Sequence record: NC_070869.1 | Direction: 5' to 3' (one strand) | DNA: 64,000 nt | Source of the DNA: Escherichia phage vB_EcoP_SP5M | Shown here: in pieces, positions 26,564 to 63,920 of the stretch | Layout of the letters: the number at the start of each line of letters is the position of its first letter | Position numbering within the stretch: position 1 is the first letter of the stretch | Notes under the pieces: generated by a model | What the model saw: only the letters and a program-made list of their open reading frames with translations | The model's database searches: none | What the model was told of the DNA's origin: nothing | Translations under genes and position numbers: made by a program

Positions 26564-26629
26564 TCCGGTGTAGGTACTAGTGTCGTGCACGGCATGAGTG
26601 TTCTGGTTCGAGTCCAGACGCCGGAACCA
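26564..26629 (+). ncRNA. tRNA-like minihelix (acceptor stem + T arm + CCA), 63 nt
   Basis: T arm TCTGG-TTCGAGT-CCAGA, acceptor TCCGGTG/CGCCGGA, discriminator A, encoded CCA; only 31 nt between acceptor and T arm and no anticodon stem-loop can be formed. Confidence 0.35.
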
Positions 26630-26631
26630 AT

Positions 26632-26755
26632 TACCAGTTGCACGAGATGGCTTGACATGTTCAAGTTTGGACTAAGTGTGACACCGCTAGATTGGAGGGC
26701 TGCTGCGGTAAGCTATAGACTCCAACCGGAGGTTCGAATCCTTCACTGGTAACCA
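26632..26755 (+). ncRNA. tRNA-like RNA, about 121 nt, with T arm, acceptor stem and CCA
   Basis: T arm GGAGG-TTCGAAT-CCTTC, acceptor TACCAGT/ACTGGTA, discriminator A, CCA; interior about 48 nt longer than a tRNA and not foldable into a cloverleaf by hand. Confidence 0.35.
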
Positions 26756-27031
26756 ATTCAAAGTAGCACTCGTTCATACTTCCCGGTATTTAAAGACACA
26801 TTCTTGTGTGAGTGCTACTTTGAGTTGGTAAAACCAAATAAAAGTCGCCAGGTACTTATGGCAAACGGGTAGTAACGAACTAGTCATTCGTCAAACGCCC
26901 ACCCAATTATGAGTCAGCAAGAACGCCTTCACTTAAACTTAAACAAAAAAGCTTAACGCAATAATTATGTAGGGGTATGTAAGGATTGCGAAGAAGGAGC
27001 CAGTTAGAGCCTGGCATGACTCACCTATTAA

Positions 27032-27104
27032 TACCCGGTAGGCTTAGTGGTAAAGCCCCACTAGTAAACCAACTAGGACGCAGGTTCGAATCCTGCCCGG
27101 GTAA
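27032..27104 (+). tRNA. tRNA, isotype undetermined (non-canonical anticodon loop)
   Basis: Acceptor TACCCGG/CCGGGTA, D arm GGCT-TAGTGGTAA-AGCC, T arm GCAGG-TTCGAAT-CCTGC; anticodon arm folds only as CTAGT/ACTAG with a 6-nt loop AAACCA (or 4-bp stem with 8-nt loop). Confidence 0.5.
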
Positions 27105-27113
27105 TCATATTAT

Positions 27114-27190
27114 GTCCGCTTAGCTTAGACTGGGAAAGCAACCGACTAATAATCGGAAGGTCACTGGTTCAAATCCAGTAGTGGACACCA
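27114..27190 (+). tRNA. tRNA with encoded CCA; anticodon loop CUAAUAA (apparent anticodon AAU)
   Basis: Acceptor GTCCGCT/AGTGGAC, D arm GCTT-AGACTGGGA-AAGC, anticodon stem CCGA/TCGG with loop CTAATAA, T arm ACTGG-TTCAAAT-CCAGT, discriminator A + CCA. Confidence 0.6.
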
Positions 27191-27424
27191 ATTCAGCAGT
27201 AACATAGTCCTGATTGCATAGCACTCTAAAGACAACACTGGTAAGACAGTCCAGTGGCTGCTAATGTATTGTTATTCCCCTCGACGGGAATTTCGCTAGT
27301 GAAGGTAACACTTAAAAATCCAAACCTACGTCTTACTACTATCAGGCTATCAACCCATGGTCGCTTAACCCTATAGTGATAGTAGTTTGACGGCCTGCTT
27401 CGTTGACTGCGTTAAAGTCACTAA

Positions 27425-27460
27425 GTCCCCTGGAGCCGCCACTCTGGGGGACTTTTTTAT
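27425..27460 (+). terminator. Rho-independent terminator after the tRNA region
   Basis: 11-bp stem GTCCCCTGGAG/CTCTGGGGGAC (two G.U) followed by TTTTTTATTT. Confidence 0.8.
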
Positions 27461-59327: not shown

Positions 59328-60917
59328 TCACACGATGTATGAACGCAGTGGATTAACACTTTCTTCCTCTTCATCATCCCACATCGGGTCACCCTTGTTA
59401 TCCACCATGGTCATACCTGCTTGTGGTTTCCAAGGATTGAGATAACCCAGCATGGAAATAGTATCAATACAGTCATCCTTACCTTTGATTCCATTAATGG
59501 TAGCTAGTTTAATCTGGCCTATGAACAGACCCATGATAGTTGTATCTCTCAACTCTTCCGGGAAGTACATCTTACCAGCTTTGAACCAAGGAACTACCAG
59601 GTTAAAGCGTGACAGCTTAGAGGTTACAGGACGGATGCCTGGCTTACCACCCTCAGAGGTAGCAAAGTTAAAGAAGACATTACGGTTAATCATTTCTTTC
59701 TGAAGGAGTGAGATGAATCCATTCTGTTGTCCTGTAATTTCGACACCAACATTTTGTGGTTGGTATTCCTGAACCAGACGGAACAAGTCGTCGAAGTTCT
59801 TGTCCATAAGCTGACGATTAGCCACACCATCAACCCAGAACCAATCTCCATTAGAACTGTAAGCCCAAACTGATATGACACTGTAGTCACTGGTCTGTTT
59901 CTCCGAAGTAGCAAAGTCAGTTGTAATGTAATAGTTGTAGCAGGACTTCATCCTTAATAGTTGCTGCCTGCTGTACCATTTAATCTCACTATCCTGAACA
60001 AGACGTTCATCTTCAGAACTAATACGAAGCATAAGTTCTTGGTAGAAACCAGCCAACTTACCAGTCTTAACTGCCATATCGTATTGTGCTTTGATATAGT
60101 CATAGGAGAAACGGTCATCCCATGCACCCTGAAACTCTTCCCTACTACAAGGAAACTTCTCACACACAGGCCATACGTTGACATCCCATGCACCAGACTC
60201 AACTGCTTCAATGATAATGTCTTCCTTATTAAAGGGAGTACCGTTGAAGATTACTTTACGACGTGTTGGGTCGAGAGCATGGTTCACACCTTTATAGACA
60301 GTATCCTTAATAGCTTCCATGCTTGTCTTAGAGTTAGCATCACCGTCACTAATCAAGTCATCCAGTACACATAGTGTTGGACGCTTACCATATATCTTCG
60401 TACCACGAAGACCTGTCTTAGCACCAAATAACTTAACACCAAGTCGATGACCTTCTGCATTACGGAACTCTAACAGGTTATCCGTAAAAGTAGCTTCAGG
60501 TATCCACTGCTGAAGGAACTCACTATTCTTGTAACGGAACTCAATGTTCTTACGTGCAGACTTAGCACCGTTATCCATTGAGTCAGATACGTAAATCATT
60601 CCCTCTACCTTACCTAAACTAGGTAAGTGTCCAAACACTGCCAAGAATAAAGTAAAGTATTCCATGAACACAGCAGTCTTACCTGCACCACGGAAACACA
60701 GATTAACTACATACTGGTTCGGGGTAATCATCTTGTCCAACATCTTCAGGTGAACCGGAGGTGTTTTGTTGGATTCACCCTCTTTGCCATTAACCAACTT
60801 AATAAAGTTGGCAAAGGTAAGAGCAAACTGACTAGGAACATAGTTAGAAGAATTAAGGTGGGAGTAGTCCACCTGGTCTAGCCATTCATCTAGTTCCTGT
60901 TTAATTAACTCAGACAT
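59328..60917 (-). CDS. terminase large subunit
   Basis: Walker A CFRGAGKTAV, Walker B-like CVLDDLISD; start set to ATG 60917 (ATGTCTGA overlap with upstream stop; track start is GTG). Confidence 0.8.
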   Translation of the reverse strand: MSELIKQELDEWLDQVDYSHLNSSNYVPSQFALTFANFIKLVNGKEGESNKTPPVHLKMLDKMITPNQYVVNLCFRGAGKTAVFMEYFTLFLAVFGHLPSLGKVEGMIYVSDSMDNGAKSARKNIEFRYKNSEFLQQWIPEATFTDNLLEFRNAEGHRLGVKLFGAKTGLRGTKIYGKRPTLCVLDDLISDGDANSKTSMEAIKDTVYKGVNHALDPTRRKVIFNGTPFNKEDIIIEAVESGAWDVNVWPVCEKFPCSREEFQGAWDDRFSYDYIKAQYDMAVKTGKLAGFYQELMLRISSEDERLVQDSEIKWYSRQQLLRMKSCYNYYITTDFATSEKQTSDYSVISVWAYSSNGDWFWVDGVANRQLMDKNFDDLFRLVQEYQPQNVGVEITGQQNGFISLLQKEMINRNVFFNFATSEGGKPGIRPVTSKLSRFNLVVPWFKAGKMYFPEELRDTTIMGLFIGQIKLATINGIKGKDDCIDTISMLGYLNPWKPQAGMTMVDNKGDPMWDDEEEESVNPLRSYIV

Positions 60918-61599
60918 CTGTAATGTCCTCATCTGCACGTACTAGTTTAGAACCAGCAATCTCTTTAGTGGGTACACCACTATTGATTGCATTAATTTGC
61001 TGTTCGGCTAATGCAGCAAGTGTTGCCTTGAGGTCAGTCAACCCGGAGTTCTCCCTTAAGTCCAGATTAATATTCGTTACCTGGTCTTTCGGTTTAGCTA
61101 AATGAGTAAGGATAGAGTTAGCTGCATCACATCTTACTTTCTCACTAGCTGCTGTAGTCATCAGTTCAACCTGAACATTGATTGCCTTCTGATAATTGTC
61201 TTGGTTCACAATCCACACTGGAACCAAACTTTGTTCCATGATGAGGTTAACTAACTTACCCCTGTGATAAGCAGATACATAAGCACTAATATCTTTCTCA
61301 CTGGTTCCTCGTGCTATAAGTTCTGCTTGTCGGTTAGGGAATGTTTTGAAGTAGGCTTCCTTATTTGAATAGCCCATGTGTTTGTAAGTGACATACTGAA
61401 CTGCATTCATGTAGTCCTGTGTCTTAAACTTACCCTCCTTCATAACACCAGAGTAAGAGATGAAGTTTTCACGGAATGCTTCAGCAACTAGTTGGTCTTG
61501 GGTTATGTTGTTAATTGTGTCTACCAACTCTTGGCTAACACTGTTCTTGAAGTTAGCAGGTAAGGCATTAATGATCTGCTGCTTAGTTAGCTCACTCAT
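60910..61599 (-). CDS. hypothetical protein upstream of terminase (possible small terminase subunit)
   Basis: First gene of the minus-strand late block; product assignment positional only. Confidence 0.4.
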   Translation of the reverse strand: MSELTKQQIINALPANFKNSVSQELVDTINNITQDQLVAEAFRENFISYSGVMKEGKFKTQDYMNAVQYVTYKHMGYSNKEAYFKTFPNRQAELIARGTSEKDISAYVSAYHRGKLVNLIMEQSLVPVWIVNQDNYQKAINVQVELMTTAASEKVRCDAANSILTHLAKPKDQVTNINLDLRENSGLTDLKATLAALAEQQINAINSGVPTKEIAGSKLVRADEDITDV

Positions 61600-61782
61600 A
61601 CTTATCTCTCTACAAAGTTATGTCTATTAACGAAGATTCTTTTCTTGGGGTGAGATACCCCTTGAAGAAACCATACCATACAGTTACACTTTAGTCATGA
61701 TATAGAAAAAGTTCATGATACTAAATAGTATGTAATGTTCCGATGACCTTATTCCCCAAGGAGTACTACCTTGAGACTCTTT

Positions 61783-62061
61783 ATGAGATGTCTAGACTCT
61801 GAAGATAAATACGCAGAGATAGACCACACAGCATCAGGATTCCTGAAGGGTGACATCATTGTTACCCACAACTGGGATACATTCCATGAGTTGTCTGGAA
61901 TGATGCTATTAGAGAACCGTCCCGGTGTTACCATCTTAGAACCACAAGAAACTTACTCTTTAGAAAAGTCTAGTTCAGCTCTTGTGTTCTTTACAAAATT
62001 ACCTCATAGTGTCTCCATCAAACGAAGCAAAGACAGCGTTCGGATGACGGTGACGATGTGA
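61783..62061 (+). CDS. small protein, member A of HE-G-LFL paralog family
   Basis: ATG 61783 (track start is TTG); motif WDTFHELSGMMLLENRPGVTILEP shared with three downstream genes. Confidence 0.4.
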   Translation: MRCLDSEDKYAEIDHTASGFLKGDIIVTHNWDTFHELSGMMLLENRPGVTILEPQETYSLEKSSSALVFFTKLPHSVSIKRSKDSVRMTVTM

Positions 62062-62209
62062 TTAGTCATACCGCCTAGTAGACAGTGGCGGTACTCGTAA
62101 AGAGTTAATAACTTCTACAGTCAGGGTTACCCGGCTCCTTTCCTACCTAGTAGGCTAACGATACACATGTATCTAGGGTGATGAACTGGCCCGTGATTGA
62201 AAACGGTAA

Positions 62210-62245
62210 GGGGTAGAGTCGAGAGACTCTACCCCATTTCTTTTT
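62210..62245 (+). terminator. Rho-independent terminator
   Basis: 11-bp stem GGGGTAGAGTC/GACTCTACCCC, loop GAGA, followed by ATTTCTTTTT. Confidence 0.85.
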
Positions 62246-62261
62246 CTGGGGGTATGTAATT

Positions 62262-62660
62262 ATGAGCATCTACTGTTTTGACATTGATATTACTGGTGTA
62301 CTACGCGGTCAAGAACCCAATTACCTTGGGGAACCAGAAGTAGTAAGTAAGTTCATCGCTTCATGGCAATCAGTATTCTTACCTGATTGTGACGAGTCTC
62401 ATGAGGTTATTGGCTCTCTTTTCTTATCCAACCTTCAGCTTAACACTGAGATACTTACTGAACCAAAAGTATATGATCTCACTCAGTACAGCAAGTTCAA
62501 CAAGTTCTTCCCCGGTGTACGCTTCTATAAGATAGATGGTTGGGAATTGATAGCTGACCATAACGTATTTAATAAGACACTTTCCATTTACTTCAGACCC
62601 ATTCCTAAAGGAAGGAGAATCAATCATGAAATTCATAATGACTATCCCCAGTTTTGTTAA
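62262..62660 (+). CDS. small protein, member B of HE-G-LFL paralog family
   Basis: ATG with GGGGG upstream; motif CDESHEVIGSLFLSNLQLNTEILTEP. Confidence 0.5.
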   Translation: MSIYCFDIDITGVLRGQEPNYLGEPEVVSKFIASWQSVFLPDCDESHEVIGSLFLSNLQLNTEILTEPKVYDLTQYSKFNKFFPGVRFYKIDGWELIADHNVFNKTLSIYFRPIPKGRRINHEIHNDYPQFC

Positions 62661-62940
62661 AGGGGAGTCCATGTACACAAATGACTTCACTTTAGAAGAG
62701 GTCATGAATAGTAGCCCCCAACGCGTAATCCTGGTTCCTACCTTAGAGGATTATCACGAAGTAAGAGGTCAACTTTTCTTAGCAGGTAATGACCGTAAGG
62801 TTGTATGTATTGTCCCACCTTCCGTCTACTCCTTTAGCGATGCATATGACGCTCTACCTTTCATGATGGTATCCGATGAATACCAATGGGATAGTCGCCA
62901 TGAGAATGACGAATACCGTTACTATTACGTAAGGAAGTAA
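62626..62940 (+). CDS. small protein, member C of HE-G-LFL paralog family
   Basis: Strong RBS AAGGAGGAG; motif LEDYHEVRGQLFLAGNDRKVVCIVPP; overlaps gene B by 35 nt. Confidence 0.5.
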   Translation: MKFIMTIPSFVKGESMYTNDFTLEEVMNSSPQRVILVPTLEDYHEVRGQLFLAGNDRKVVCIVPPSVYSFSDAYDALPFMMVSDEYQWDSRHENDEYRYYYVRK

Positions 62941-62943
62941 GCC

Positions 62944-63258
62944 ATGCACTTCTACGGTTTAAGTAGTCGTAGTACCTGTCCCCTTAATCTGGGGGTAGGT
63001 AAATCTCCTTGGTTGGGAATAAGTAAACCCATGACCATGTACTATGAACAATGTGAAAAAGCAGATGAGTTCATCGGAACCTGTTTAATGTTAGGTGCAC
63101 CTATTACCTTTATTAGGATAGATACTTCCATTGAAGTTCCGGAGGGTGTCGCTGTATACATCTTCTCCTCCTGTGAACCTATGGTAGCTACTACTCTTAC
63201 AGGTAGACTCATTACCCTTTATCCTTCCTCATATTTATCTAGCGACGAGAGCTATTAA
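62944..63258 (+). CDS. hypothetical small protein
   Basis: ATG with AAGGAAG RBS; 104 codons; family motif not evident. Confidence 0.45.
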   Translation: MHFYGLSSRSTCPLNLGVGKSPWLGISKPMTMYYEQCEKADEFIGTCLMLGAPITFIRIDTSIEVPEGVAVYIFSSCEPMVATTLTGRLITLYPSSYLSSDESY

Positions 63259-63542
63259 TGGTTATCAGTAAAATTTATTCAGAGCTACCCGGGGATGAAT
63301 ACACCCATCATAAAGATGTAGCTAACCTAGATGCATATGTACTTATCCTGGTTCCAGATGAACAGTCCTTACATGAACTACAGGGCTTACTCTTCTTACA
63401 CAATAAGAAATCCGAAGTACATCTGCTTGAACCAGGAACACCAATGTCCTGGCAAGGTAGCTTCAGTCCTTGGCATCTTAATACAGACAAGTACATCCTA
63501 TCCTTCGAGGGTAACACCCCCATCTATAAGGAAAGACAATGA
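63258..63542 (+). CDS. small protein, member E of HE-G-LFL paralog family
   Basis: ATG overlapping upstream stop; motif DEQSLHELQGLLFLHNKKSEVHLLEP. Confidence 0.5.
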   Translation: MVISKIYSELPGDEYTHHKDVANLDAYVLILVPDEQSLHELQGLLFLHNKKSEVHLLEPGTPMSWQGSFSPWHLNTDKYILSFEGNTPIYKERQ

Positions 63543-63581
63543 AACTAAACATCCCCCCATATCTGGTACAGGTACTGAAGC

Positions 63582-63920
63582 ATGAACGTTAAACTCTTAG
63601 GTATGCGTGGTACTGACTTACTGCACTACTCTTCTGAACCAGAGAAAGCAATCATCCACCTTATGTCCTATGGGGATTCCACACTAATAATGGAACCAGG
63701 AGAGTTAGCAGACTTTGCACAAGGACATAAGATTCTTACTAACAGCAATGCAAAGATAGTTATCTTGCAAAATGGTGAGTCAGCCTTCATCTTATTAGGT
63801 GATTATGCTCATGTGTTTATTAAAGATGCTGCCGTAAGACATAGTAGTGGTAACCCTAACCATCCTGACTATTACTCTGGCATAGCTCGTATTATCACCC
63901 GAATCTCACCTCCTATTTAA
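63582..63920 (+). CDS. hypothetical small protein
   Basis: ATG start, 112 codons. Confidence 0.45.
   Translation: MNVKLLGMRGTDLLHYSSEPEKAIIHLMSYGDSTLIMEPGELADFAQGHKILTNSNAKIVILQNGESAFILLGDYAHVFIKDAAVRHSSGNPNHPDYYSGIARIITRISPPI

Follow-up and report, generated by a model that had tools for sequence, protein, structure and literature searches.

Do the small genes that crowd the right end of an N4-like phage genome descend from a common ancestor and, if so, when are they expressed and what do they do? This question is raised by six consecutive plus-strand genes, here called A to F, at positions 61771-63920 of a 64,000-nucleotide (nt) stretch of Escherichia phage vB_EcoP_SP5M (NC_070869.1), referred to below as the window. 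Phage genome ends are known to carry tandem arrays of small ORFans, and a first-pass annotation of this one, made from the sequence alone, had described four of the six genes as diverged paralogs with a common motif and had placed them at the start of an early region. We find that the paralogy holds and that the early timing does not. The six genes form the rightward-transcribed right-end module of a Gamaleyavirus (N4-like) genome, adjoining the terminase genes, and the interest of the locus comes mainly from two further results, namely a family-wide structured RNA encoded between genes A and B and the unification of gp70 and gp71 of N4, the classical model phage, in one protein family.

Paralogy of the small genes

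The motif strings quoted in the first-pass annotation are present in gene A (61771..62061; 96 amino acids (aa) from a TTG at 61771 or 92 aa from an ATG at 61783; ...FHELSGMMLLENRPGVTILEP), gene B (62262..62660; 132 aa; ...SHEVIGSLFLSNLQLNTEILTEP), gene C (62626..62940; 104 aa, overlapping the end of B by 35 nt; ...YHEVRGQLFLAGNDRKVVCIVPP) and gene E (63258..63542; 94 aa, its start overlapping the stop of D; ...LHELQGLLFLHNKKSEVHLLEP), which represent paralogs 1 to 4 in this order and all lie on the plus strand. Alignment statistics bore out the significance of the motif. When each pair was compared by Smith-Waterman alignment against 2000 shuffles, all six pairs among these four genes scored above chance, with z values of 3.9-9.8 and p <= 0.0045 (<= 0.0005 for four pairs). 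Profile-profile comparison of the ortholog families, whose alignments were built from 120 database homologs and seven phage loci, placed them in one shared register and core (C-E, P = 1.1e-6; A-E, 6.2e-6; B-C, 2.2e-5). Similarly, a search of the 38,880 PHROG families matched A, B, C and E to their own families with E values of 7e-39 to 1.7e-65, gave cross-hits among the families of the four, and returned the families of other paralogs as the second-best matches of A, C and E. Judged by these comparisons, A, B, C and E certainly belong to one protein family; they are true paralogs that arose, as proposed, by tandem duplication and divergence.

The count of four genes sharing the core was correct for A, B, C and E and is probably too low, given that the other two genes appear to be diverged members. 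At the single-sequence level, no pair involving D or F was significant in the same Smith-Waterman test. Gene F (63582..63920, plus strand; 112 aa) aligned with the superfamily profile in homologous register (hhalign, P = 6e-4) and was detected by the superfamily hidden Markov model (HMM) with E values of about 1e-3 to 1e-4 in every phage; its homolog in phage IME11 appeared as a weak fold match in BFVD, a database of predicted viral structures (E = 0.011, template modeling (TM) score 0.49, rank 18). F is a probable, remote member of the family. Gene D (62944..63258, plus strand; 104 aa) gave no signal in pairwise or hhalign comparison and was recruited by the iterated HMM, with an E value of 5.7e-5 and then 3.6e-12 (best decoy 0.024-0.15), in an alignment that kept the expected register (...MYYEQCEKADEFIGTCLMLGAPITFIRID...), suggesting that it is a possible, strongly diverged member.

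Gene A is the ortholog of N4 gp70 and gene B that of N4 gp71, and the superfamily HMM detected both N4 proteins (gp70, E = 7e-6; gp71, E = 2e-11). A profile HMM made from the four copies and searched against phage proteins, a check that the first-pass annotation had proposed, found relatives in N4, KP8 and JWAlpha, all at N4-like right ends, with five genes detected in Klebsiella phage KP8 and at least three in Achromobacter phage JWAlpha, a member of another subfamily, the Rothmandenesvirinae. None of the 464 close homologs found carried a Pfam domain. Against 1.84 billion (1.84e9) representative proteins, a four-family profile matched only 22 clusters (defined at 50% identity; E <= 1e-3), aligning over their full length of about 100 residues, and every genomic context examined was a small-gene array at an N4-like right end. 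In addition, 80 IMG/VR loci anchored on the small terminase gene terS were collected, and related loci were also gathered with the B family. Among 1434 open reading frames (ORFs) from both strands of the terS-anchored loci, the iterated HMM produced 88 hits in 22 loci, all 88 of them on the module strand. The family is so far confined to Schitoviridae-type phages, with N4 gp70 (A-type) and gp71 (B-type) as its named members.

Database annotation does not capture this relationship. PHROGs splits the six genes into six separate families of unknown function (A, phrog_7213; B, phrog_9160; C, phrog_11661; D, phrog_12099; E, phrog_16338; F, phrog_12606), and searches of the array proteins against Pfam-A, NCBIfam and PADLOC returned no match (best E >= 0.13, far under the cut-offs), in agreement with the first-pass view that the motif fits no recognized family. 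The record of phage PhAPEC5 labels its first two module genes as similar to N4 gp70 and gp71; neither these notes nor the N4 record nor PHROGs marks the two as paralogs. Beyond database annotation, we found no paper that unites the six PHROGs in one family, identifies gp70 and gp71 as paralogs or predicts the fold of the family.

An AlphaFold2 model of C, computed from a 31-sequence alignment, was confident (predicted local distance difference test (pLDDT) score 87.3, predicted TM score (pTM) 0.80) and represents a small alpha/beta fold, in which an N-terminal beta-hairpin precedes a motif-bearing, conserved strand-helix-strand core (I-L-V-P-D-x-E-x-x-H-E-V-x-G-x-L-F-L ... V-x-x-L-E-P) and a C-terminal sheet completes the domain. 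A first model from a shallow alignment was poor (pLDDT 62) and was set aside. On the basis of the C model, the family is predicted to share a compact alpha/beta fold around this core. The structure prediction suggested in the first-pass annotation thus yielded a confident model without a solved relative: Foldseek against the PDB returned nothing convincing (best E 0.59), and a sequence-profile search of the PDB found nothing. In BFVD, the top 26 matches were small proteins, either unnamed entries or named proteins of Schitoviridae phages, namely Escherichia phages, KP8, the Achromobacter phages JWAlpha, JWDelta and Axy, and Pseudomonas phage Zuri, often with several matches per genome (KP8, JWAlpha, the Axy phages and Zuri). 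Several orthologous clusters carry other residues in place of the motif's His and Glu, the Gly alone being nearly invariant, and a catalytic role is therefore unlikely.

A conserved structured RNA between genes A and B

The gap between A and B encodes a conserved structured RNA of about 175 nt (62070-62245, plus strand), whose helices, apart from the pseudoknot, were predicted with RNAalifold from 27 distinct sequences. It begins with a hairpin (hairpin 1; 62070..62092) that combines a CCGCC/GGCGG stem with a conserved 11-nt loop (UAGUAGACAGU) and whose stem covaries between CCGCC/GGCGG, CUCACC/GGUGGG, CCUCC/GGAGG and CCCCC/GGGGG. Part of the loop, GUAGA (62078-62082), pairs with UCUAC (62114-62118) in a pseudoknot (62078..62118) that is paired in 100% of alignment cells and in which three of the five pairs change on both sides, the variants being GUGGU:ACCAC, GUGGA:UCCAC, GGAGU:ACUUC (N4) and GGAGA:UCUUC (KP8). 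It is followed by a three-way junction (62120..62190), consisting of an outer helix (62120-62124/62186-62190), an inner helix (62126-62132/62176-62182) and two enclosed hairpins (62142-62154 and 62160-62173), which are seen by RNAalifold, in pair counts and in the covariance models R1 and R2; one junction pair of the inner helix is C-G in 15 sequences, A-U in 6 and G-U in 5. Between the junction and an intrinsic terminator (62210..62245) stands a small hairpin (62191..62206) whose loop (UGAUUGAAAA) is highly conserved. The terminator combines a G+C-rich stem of 11 bp with a GAGA loop and a U-run and closes the RNA at its 3' end, 17 nt ahead of the ATG of gene B. All of these elements lie on the plus strand.

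Over the whole RNA, 98% of alignment cells are paired and 18 pairs change on both sides, as compared to 4.8 +/- 1.5 in shuffled controls (none of 500 as high) and 2-5 when pairing partners were slid. The terminator stem alone has five covarying pairs plus G.U pairs that are possible on the plus strand only and, because the G.U pairs are invariant, the structure is specific to this strand. The 200-nt gap shows a median divergence of 0.065, as against a synonymous divergence (dS) of 0.6-0.7 and a nonsynonymous divergence (dN) of 0.08-0.16 in the flanking genes, meaning that the RNA evolves about ten times more slowly than nearby synonymous sites. The locus therefore displays the hallmarks of a structured, functional RNA, namely changes that compensate one another, pairs possible on one strand only and a degree of conservation that exceeds the neutral level.

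The covariance model found one copy in the window. It also located independent copies, each between the first and the second paralog, with scores of 112 bits in contig L011, 31.8 bits in KP8 and 34 bits (E = 4e-9) in JWAlpha. In 71 diverse, terS-anchored Schitoviridae loci, the first covariance model matched 25 and an iterated model 37 (E < 0.01), 12 of which were outside the training set, and all hits were located on the module strand upstream of terS. In the alignment of these diverse copies 34 of 35 pairs covary, a figure to be read with the caveat that the alignment was fitted to the model. Rfam 15 (4227 families) was searched with 62062-62261 without any match at E <= 1, none of 11 diverse loci carrying the RNA reached a gathering score, ARAGORN detected no tRNA in the A-B gap, and we found no description of a Schitoviridae RNA of this kind in the literature. 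We therefore propose the A-B RNA as a candidate new RNA class; phage-encoded structured RNAs with comparable support are, to our knowledge, rare.

Three other interpretations of the gap were examined and rejected. A hammerhead-like UGAUGA...GAAA signature was discarded because half of the sequences have GGAUGA, its U thus not being conserved, and because Rfam gave no match. A putative antiterminator, UUCUAC pairing with GUAGAG of the 5' terminator arm, showed no covariation in contigs L013 and L035. Finally, a 40-aa minus-strand ORF (62147-62269), called by PHANOTATE in phage Mimir124, was dismissed in view of indels that are not multiples of three and of the stem covariation, both of which fit an RNA.

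The RNA resembles known systems in architecture only. Like an attenuating riboswitch or leader, it consists of a covarying multi-helix domain with a pseudoknot, then a terminator and then the ribosome-binding site of the next gene; unlike these, it matches no Rfam family, and a mutually exclusive antiterminator was not found. As it follows a coding gene, it could equally be a stable RNA derived from a 3' untranslated region (UTR). The packaging RNA (pRNA) of phi29 is likewise encoded by a phage, close to packaging genes and a genome end, and is similar in size, with a three-way junction and a covarying loop pairing, although this is a resemblance only and sequence does not tell intramolecular from intermolecular pairing. 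However, pRNA belongs to the phi29-type motor, whereas the present phage has a classical TerS/TerL terminase and its RNA does not match the pRNA of Rfam.

In four distant environmental Schitoviridae loci, a different conserved protein of about 100-113 aa (L069, 1105-1446; L058, 1271-1576; L091, 2228-2551; L071, 230-559; N-terminus MANLRVTLGAVFGAVTGAADAV... or similar) is encoded on the module strand, within about 200-750 nt past the 3' end of the RNA, and replaces the gp71-type paralogs there.

Genome context, age and timing

The 2.4 kb around the array match 57 phage records at 83-92% nucleotide identity, almost all of them Escherichia or Shigella phages of the genus Gamaleyavirus (G7C-like; Schitoviridae, Enquatrovirinae). 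Upstream of gene A lie, on the minus strand, the genes for the large terminase (terL, 59328-60938) and the gp69-like small terminase (terS, 60910-61599), and genes B to F are tightly packed or overlapping. In annotated relatives, the block reaches the short direct terminal repeat, and circularly written records continue into the left-end genes gp1 and gp2. The family occupies the interval from terS (gp69) to the right terminal repeat, with the late genes on the other strand, and this arrangement relative to terS/terL and the genome end holds without exception in N4, Gamaleyavirus, KP8, JWAlpha and metagenomic relatives. The N4 right end contains gp70, gp71 and a tiny gp72 only; its two family genes, the orthologs of A and B, occupy the same place between gp69 and the terminal repeat and are separated by a gap of about 210 nt with the same RNA and terminator, the difference being that N4 has two copies and this phage four to six.

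The first-pass annotation had identified the motif in gene A correctly and had started the gene at the ATG at 61783. The start is most likely the TTG at 61771, because a Shine-Dalgarno sequence (AAGGAG, 61758-61763) lies 7 nt upstream of it and phage Moonfish has ACC in place of the internal ATG.

Comparison with up to 28 relatives yielded ratios of nonsynonymous to synonymous substitution rates (dN/dS) of 0.12-0.22 for A to F (A, 0.22; B, 0.14), as compared to 0.02 for terS, and these values mark all six as real genes. Amino-acid identity among relatives is 75-90% for A-C, E and F versus 99% for terS, and dS is 0.4-0.7 versus 0.26; for D, identity is 96% and dS 0.13, values that come from only four ungapped comparisons. 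The paralogs have diverged from one another, as postulated in the first-pass annotation, and the orthologs are under purifying selection without gene-wide diversifying selection.

Copy number, in turn, is lineage-specific. A, B and C occur in nearly all loci, F in some only and E in some Gamaleyaviruses only, and after later tandem duplications N4 has two copies, KP8 five, JWAlpha at least three and the present phage up to six. Extra copies were observed at the distal end of close relatives, namely two tandem F-type genes in Mimir124 (L002, 4662-5381) and IME11 (L004, 3162-4124) and a second E-type gene in Moonfish (L006, 4151-4477); recent duplication or exchange is therefore concentrated beside the terminal repeat. 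Because gp70-type and gp71-type copies are already present in N4, KP8 and JWAlpha, the last from another subfamily, sequence comparison indicates that the founding duplication is ancient and not recent, and that the split between the two types is older than the split of the Schitoviridae subfamilies.

The claim that the array holds the first genes of an early region at the genome end is not supported. In phages of the N4 type, promoters for early transcription by the virion RNA polymerase occur only at the left end, because this end is the first to enter the cell (PMC4496689), and the rightmost cluster of small ORFans in phage LUZ7 (29 ORFans, gp87-gp115) is transcribed at the middle stage (PMC9163698). 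N4-type early genes lie at the left end behind a hairpin promoter with a 5-7 bp stem and a 3-nt loop; the module lies at the right end, and the sole conserved hairpin upstream of it has a loop of 4-6 nt. In addition, a strong terminator separates A from B-F, so that the six genes are not one simple unit. By analogy with LUZ7, the module would be transcribed at the middle stage instead. The two arrays are alike in consisting of small genes of unknown function on the early/middle strand at the rightmost end of an N4-like genome; they differ in that no sequence or fold relationship was seen between them, the BFVD matches including Zuri and not LUZ7 or LIT1. As the middle promoters of LUZ7 are hairpins unlike those of N4 (PMC9163698), the timing is carried over by analogy only.

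The conserved upstream hairpin (GGGGT-loop-ACCCC, 61647..61661) was identified between the divergently oriented genes terS and A and examined in an alignment of 11 relatives including N4. From Gamaleyavirus to N4 the stem is invariant, and the loop differs in both length and sequence. The hairpin could be part of a promoter of the module or, alternatively, of the late promoter or 5' UTR. The sequences flanking it, TTCTTTTCTT and TTGAAGAAAC, are conserved as well. No shared promoter motif was found in the other plus-strand intergenic regions inspected.

Two further observations concern the rest of the window. It starts inside an ORF resembling a repeat protein (1-497; ...FTYKWQFKANTAGAAFADIGSGSNASAATATLTLKGVTAASAGTYKVIVT), several kb from the true left end, and the early promoters and gp1/gp2 are therefore outside it. 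In addition, a hairpin-rich region of nearly 2 kb (25523-27460), mostly without long ORFs, contains two adjoining tRNA genes, one to which ARAGORN assigned no identity (tRNA-???, 27032-27104) and one tRNA-Ile(aat) (27114-27190), and may hold more RNA genes.

What the module may do

The reading that we favor as a whole, with a probability only somewhat above one half (about 0.55), is that of a right-end module encoding one family of non-enzymatic binding proteins, expressed at the middle stage and controlled by an attenuator-type RNA. Gene A and the RNA would form one transcription unit, the RNA would act as an attenuator between A and B-F, and B-F would be made only by read-through. Expression would fall in mid-infection, in analogy to LUZ7 and in line with the order of N4 genome entry. 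In the proteins, the conserved core would serve as scaffold and the variable C-terminal halves would confer specificity, presumably to modulate host or, with less likelihood, phage processes. Regarding function in particular, modulation of host processes is our leading candidate at close to even odds; participation in the replication, genome-end processes or packaging of the phage itself is considerably less probable, direct coupling to the RNA is improbable, and the small remainder falls to something else.

Several results weigh against this reading. The most distant Schitoviridae loci keep the RNA with no detectable gp70/71-like ORF, so that the RNA may not exist to regulate those genes, and a covarying antiterminator pairing was looked for and not found. 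A sigma-70 promoter scan gave 3 sites, as compared to 6.8 expected from shuffles, none of them sensibly placed, and the word ACTTTAG, which also occurs in the upstream region of N4, shows no enrichment in the window (10 occurrences versus 12.6 expected). On the protein side, the membership of D depends solely on profile iteration, and C is the only array protein whose model informs the fold. That A and B types are conserved among phages of very different hosts speaks against a purely host-specific arms race. Moreover, we found no interaction partner, phenotype or essentiality data for N4 gp70/gp71 in the literature, where searches for these proteins retrieved nothing on them and gene-number matches came from the numbering of other phages; published CRISPR interference (CRISPRi) and transposon screens on phages contain no data on an N4-like phage.

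A further reading, which we regard as less likely than not, is that the RNA at 62070-62245 would represent a new Schitoviridae-wide class with a dedicated function of its own, with which the gp70/gp71 proteins of the Enquatrovirinae and Rothmandenesvirinae lineages would act as conserved partners. The RNA might sense a ligand or protein and, as an attenuator, gate the gp71-type paralogs. Alternatively, it might act in trans, alone or as a ribonucleoprotein (RNP), either in the transcription programme, which in Schitoviridae employs three different RNA polymerases, or in genome-end or packaging biology.

The idea of a fast-diversifying early arsenal, in which host-takeover, anti-defense or superinfection-exclusion proteins are each directed at a different host factor, is unlikely in our assessment. 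It would suit proteins that are small, acidic to near-neutral (isoelectric points of the six, 4.7-6.3) and devoid of known domains, whose distal copy number varies among close relatives, as with the duplicates in Mimir124, IME11 and Moonfish, and whose orthologs diverge much faster than terS. However, the array enters the cell after the rest of the genome, with early promoters at the left end and a middle-stage counterpart in LUZ7; the dN/dS values reveal no gene-wide positive selection; and the A and B types are conserved from Escherichia to Achromobacter phages. Comparison with PDB and Pfam showed no similarity to known inhibitors of the anti-defense or host-takeover kind, such as Ocr-type DNA mimics or anti-CRISPRs.

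Still less probable is a service of the array proteins in late DNA transactions of the phage, such as genome-end processing, concatemer resolution or assistance to the terminase and packaging. Such a role would explain the constant placement beside terS/terL and the terminal repeat, it would be compatible with the invariance of that synteny and with the conservation of the family across subfamilies infecting different hosts, and a replication-related role was suggested for the right-end middle cluster in the LUZ7 study (PMC9163698). Yet the acidic character of the proteins makes nucleic-acid binding unlikely, they resemble no known DNA-binding, nuclease or packaging fold, and the family varies from 2 to 6 copies and is not detectable in distant Schitoviridae with the same terS.

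A similarly low probability applies to proteins and RNA forming one unit, be it an RNP with autoregulated read-through or a ligand-sensing, riboswitch-like leader for B-F: the RNA does lie between paralogs 1 and 2 in every family-bearing genome (Gamaleyavirus, N4, KP8, JWAlpha and contigs L010, L011, L013 and L035), in an attenuator layout of conserved junction and pseudoknot, terminator and ribosome-binding site, but it also occurs in distant Schitoviridae loci with no family member detected beside it, the proteins are acidic, and no alternative pairing covaries.

Hypothetical proteins scattered over six PHROGs become one testable family, and the gp70/gp71 family is seen to have expanded to about six copies in G7C-like coliphages, which are therapeutic candidates. 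The intergenic RNA may be the larger prize. It was detected in at least half of the diverse Schitoviridae right ends sampled and provides a handle on right-end expression and on the possible regulation of terminator read-through in these phages.

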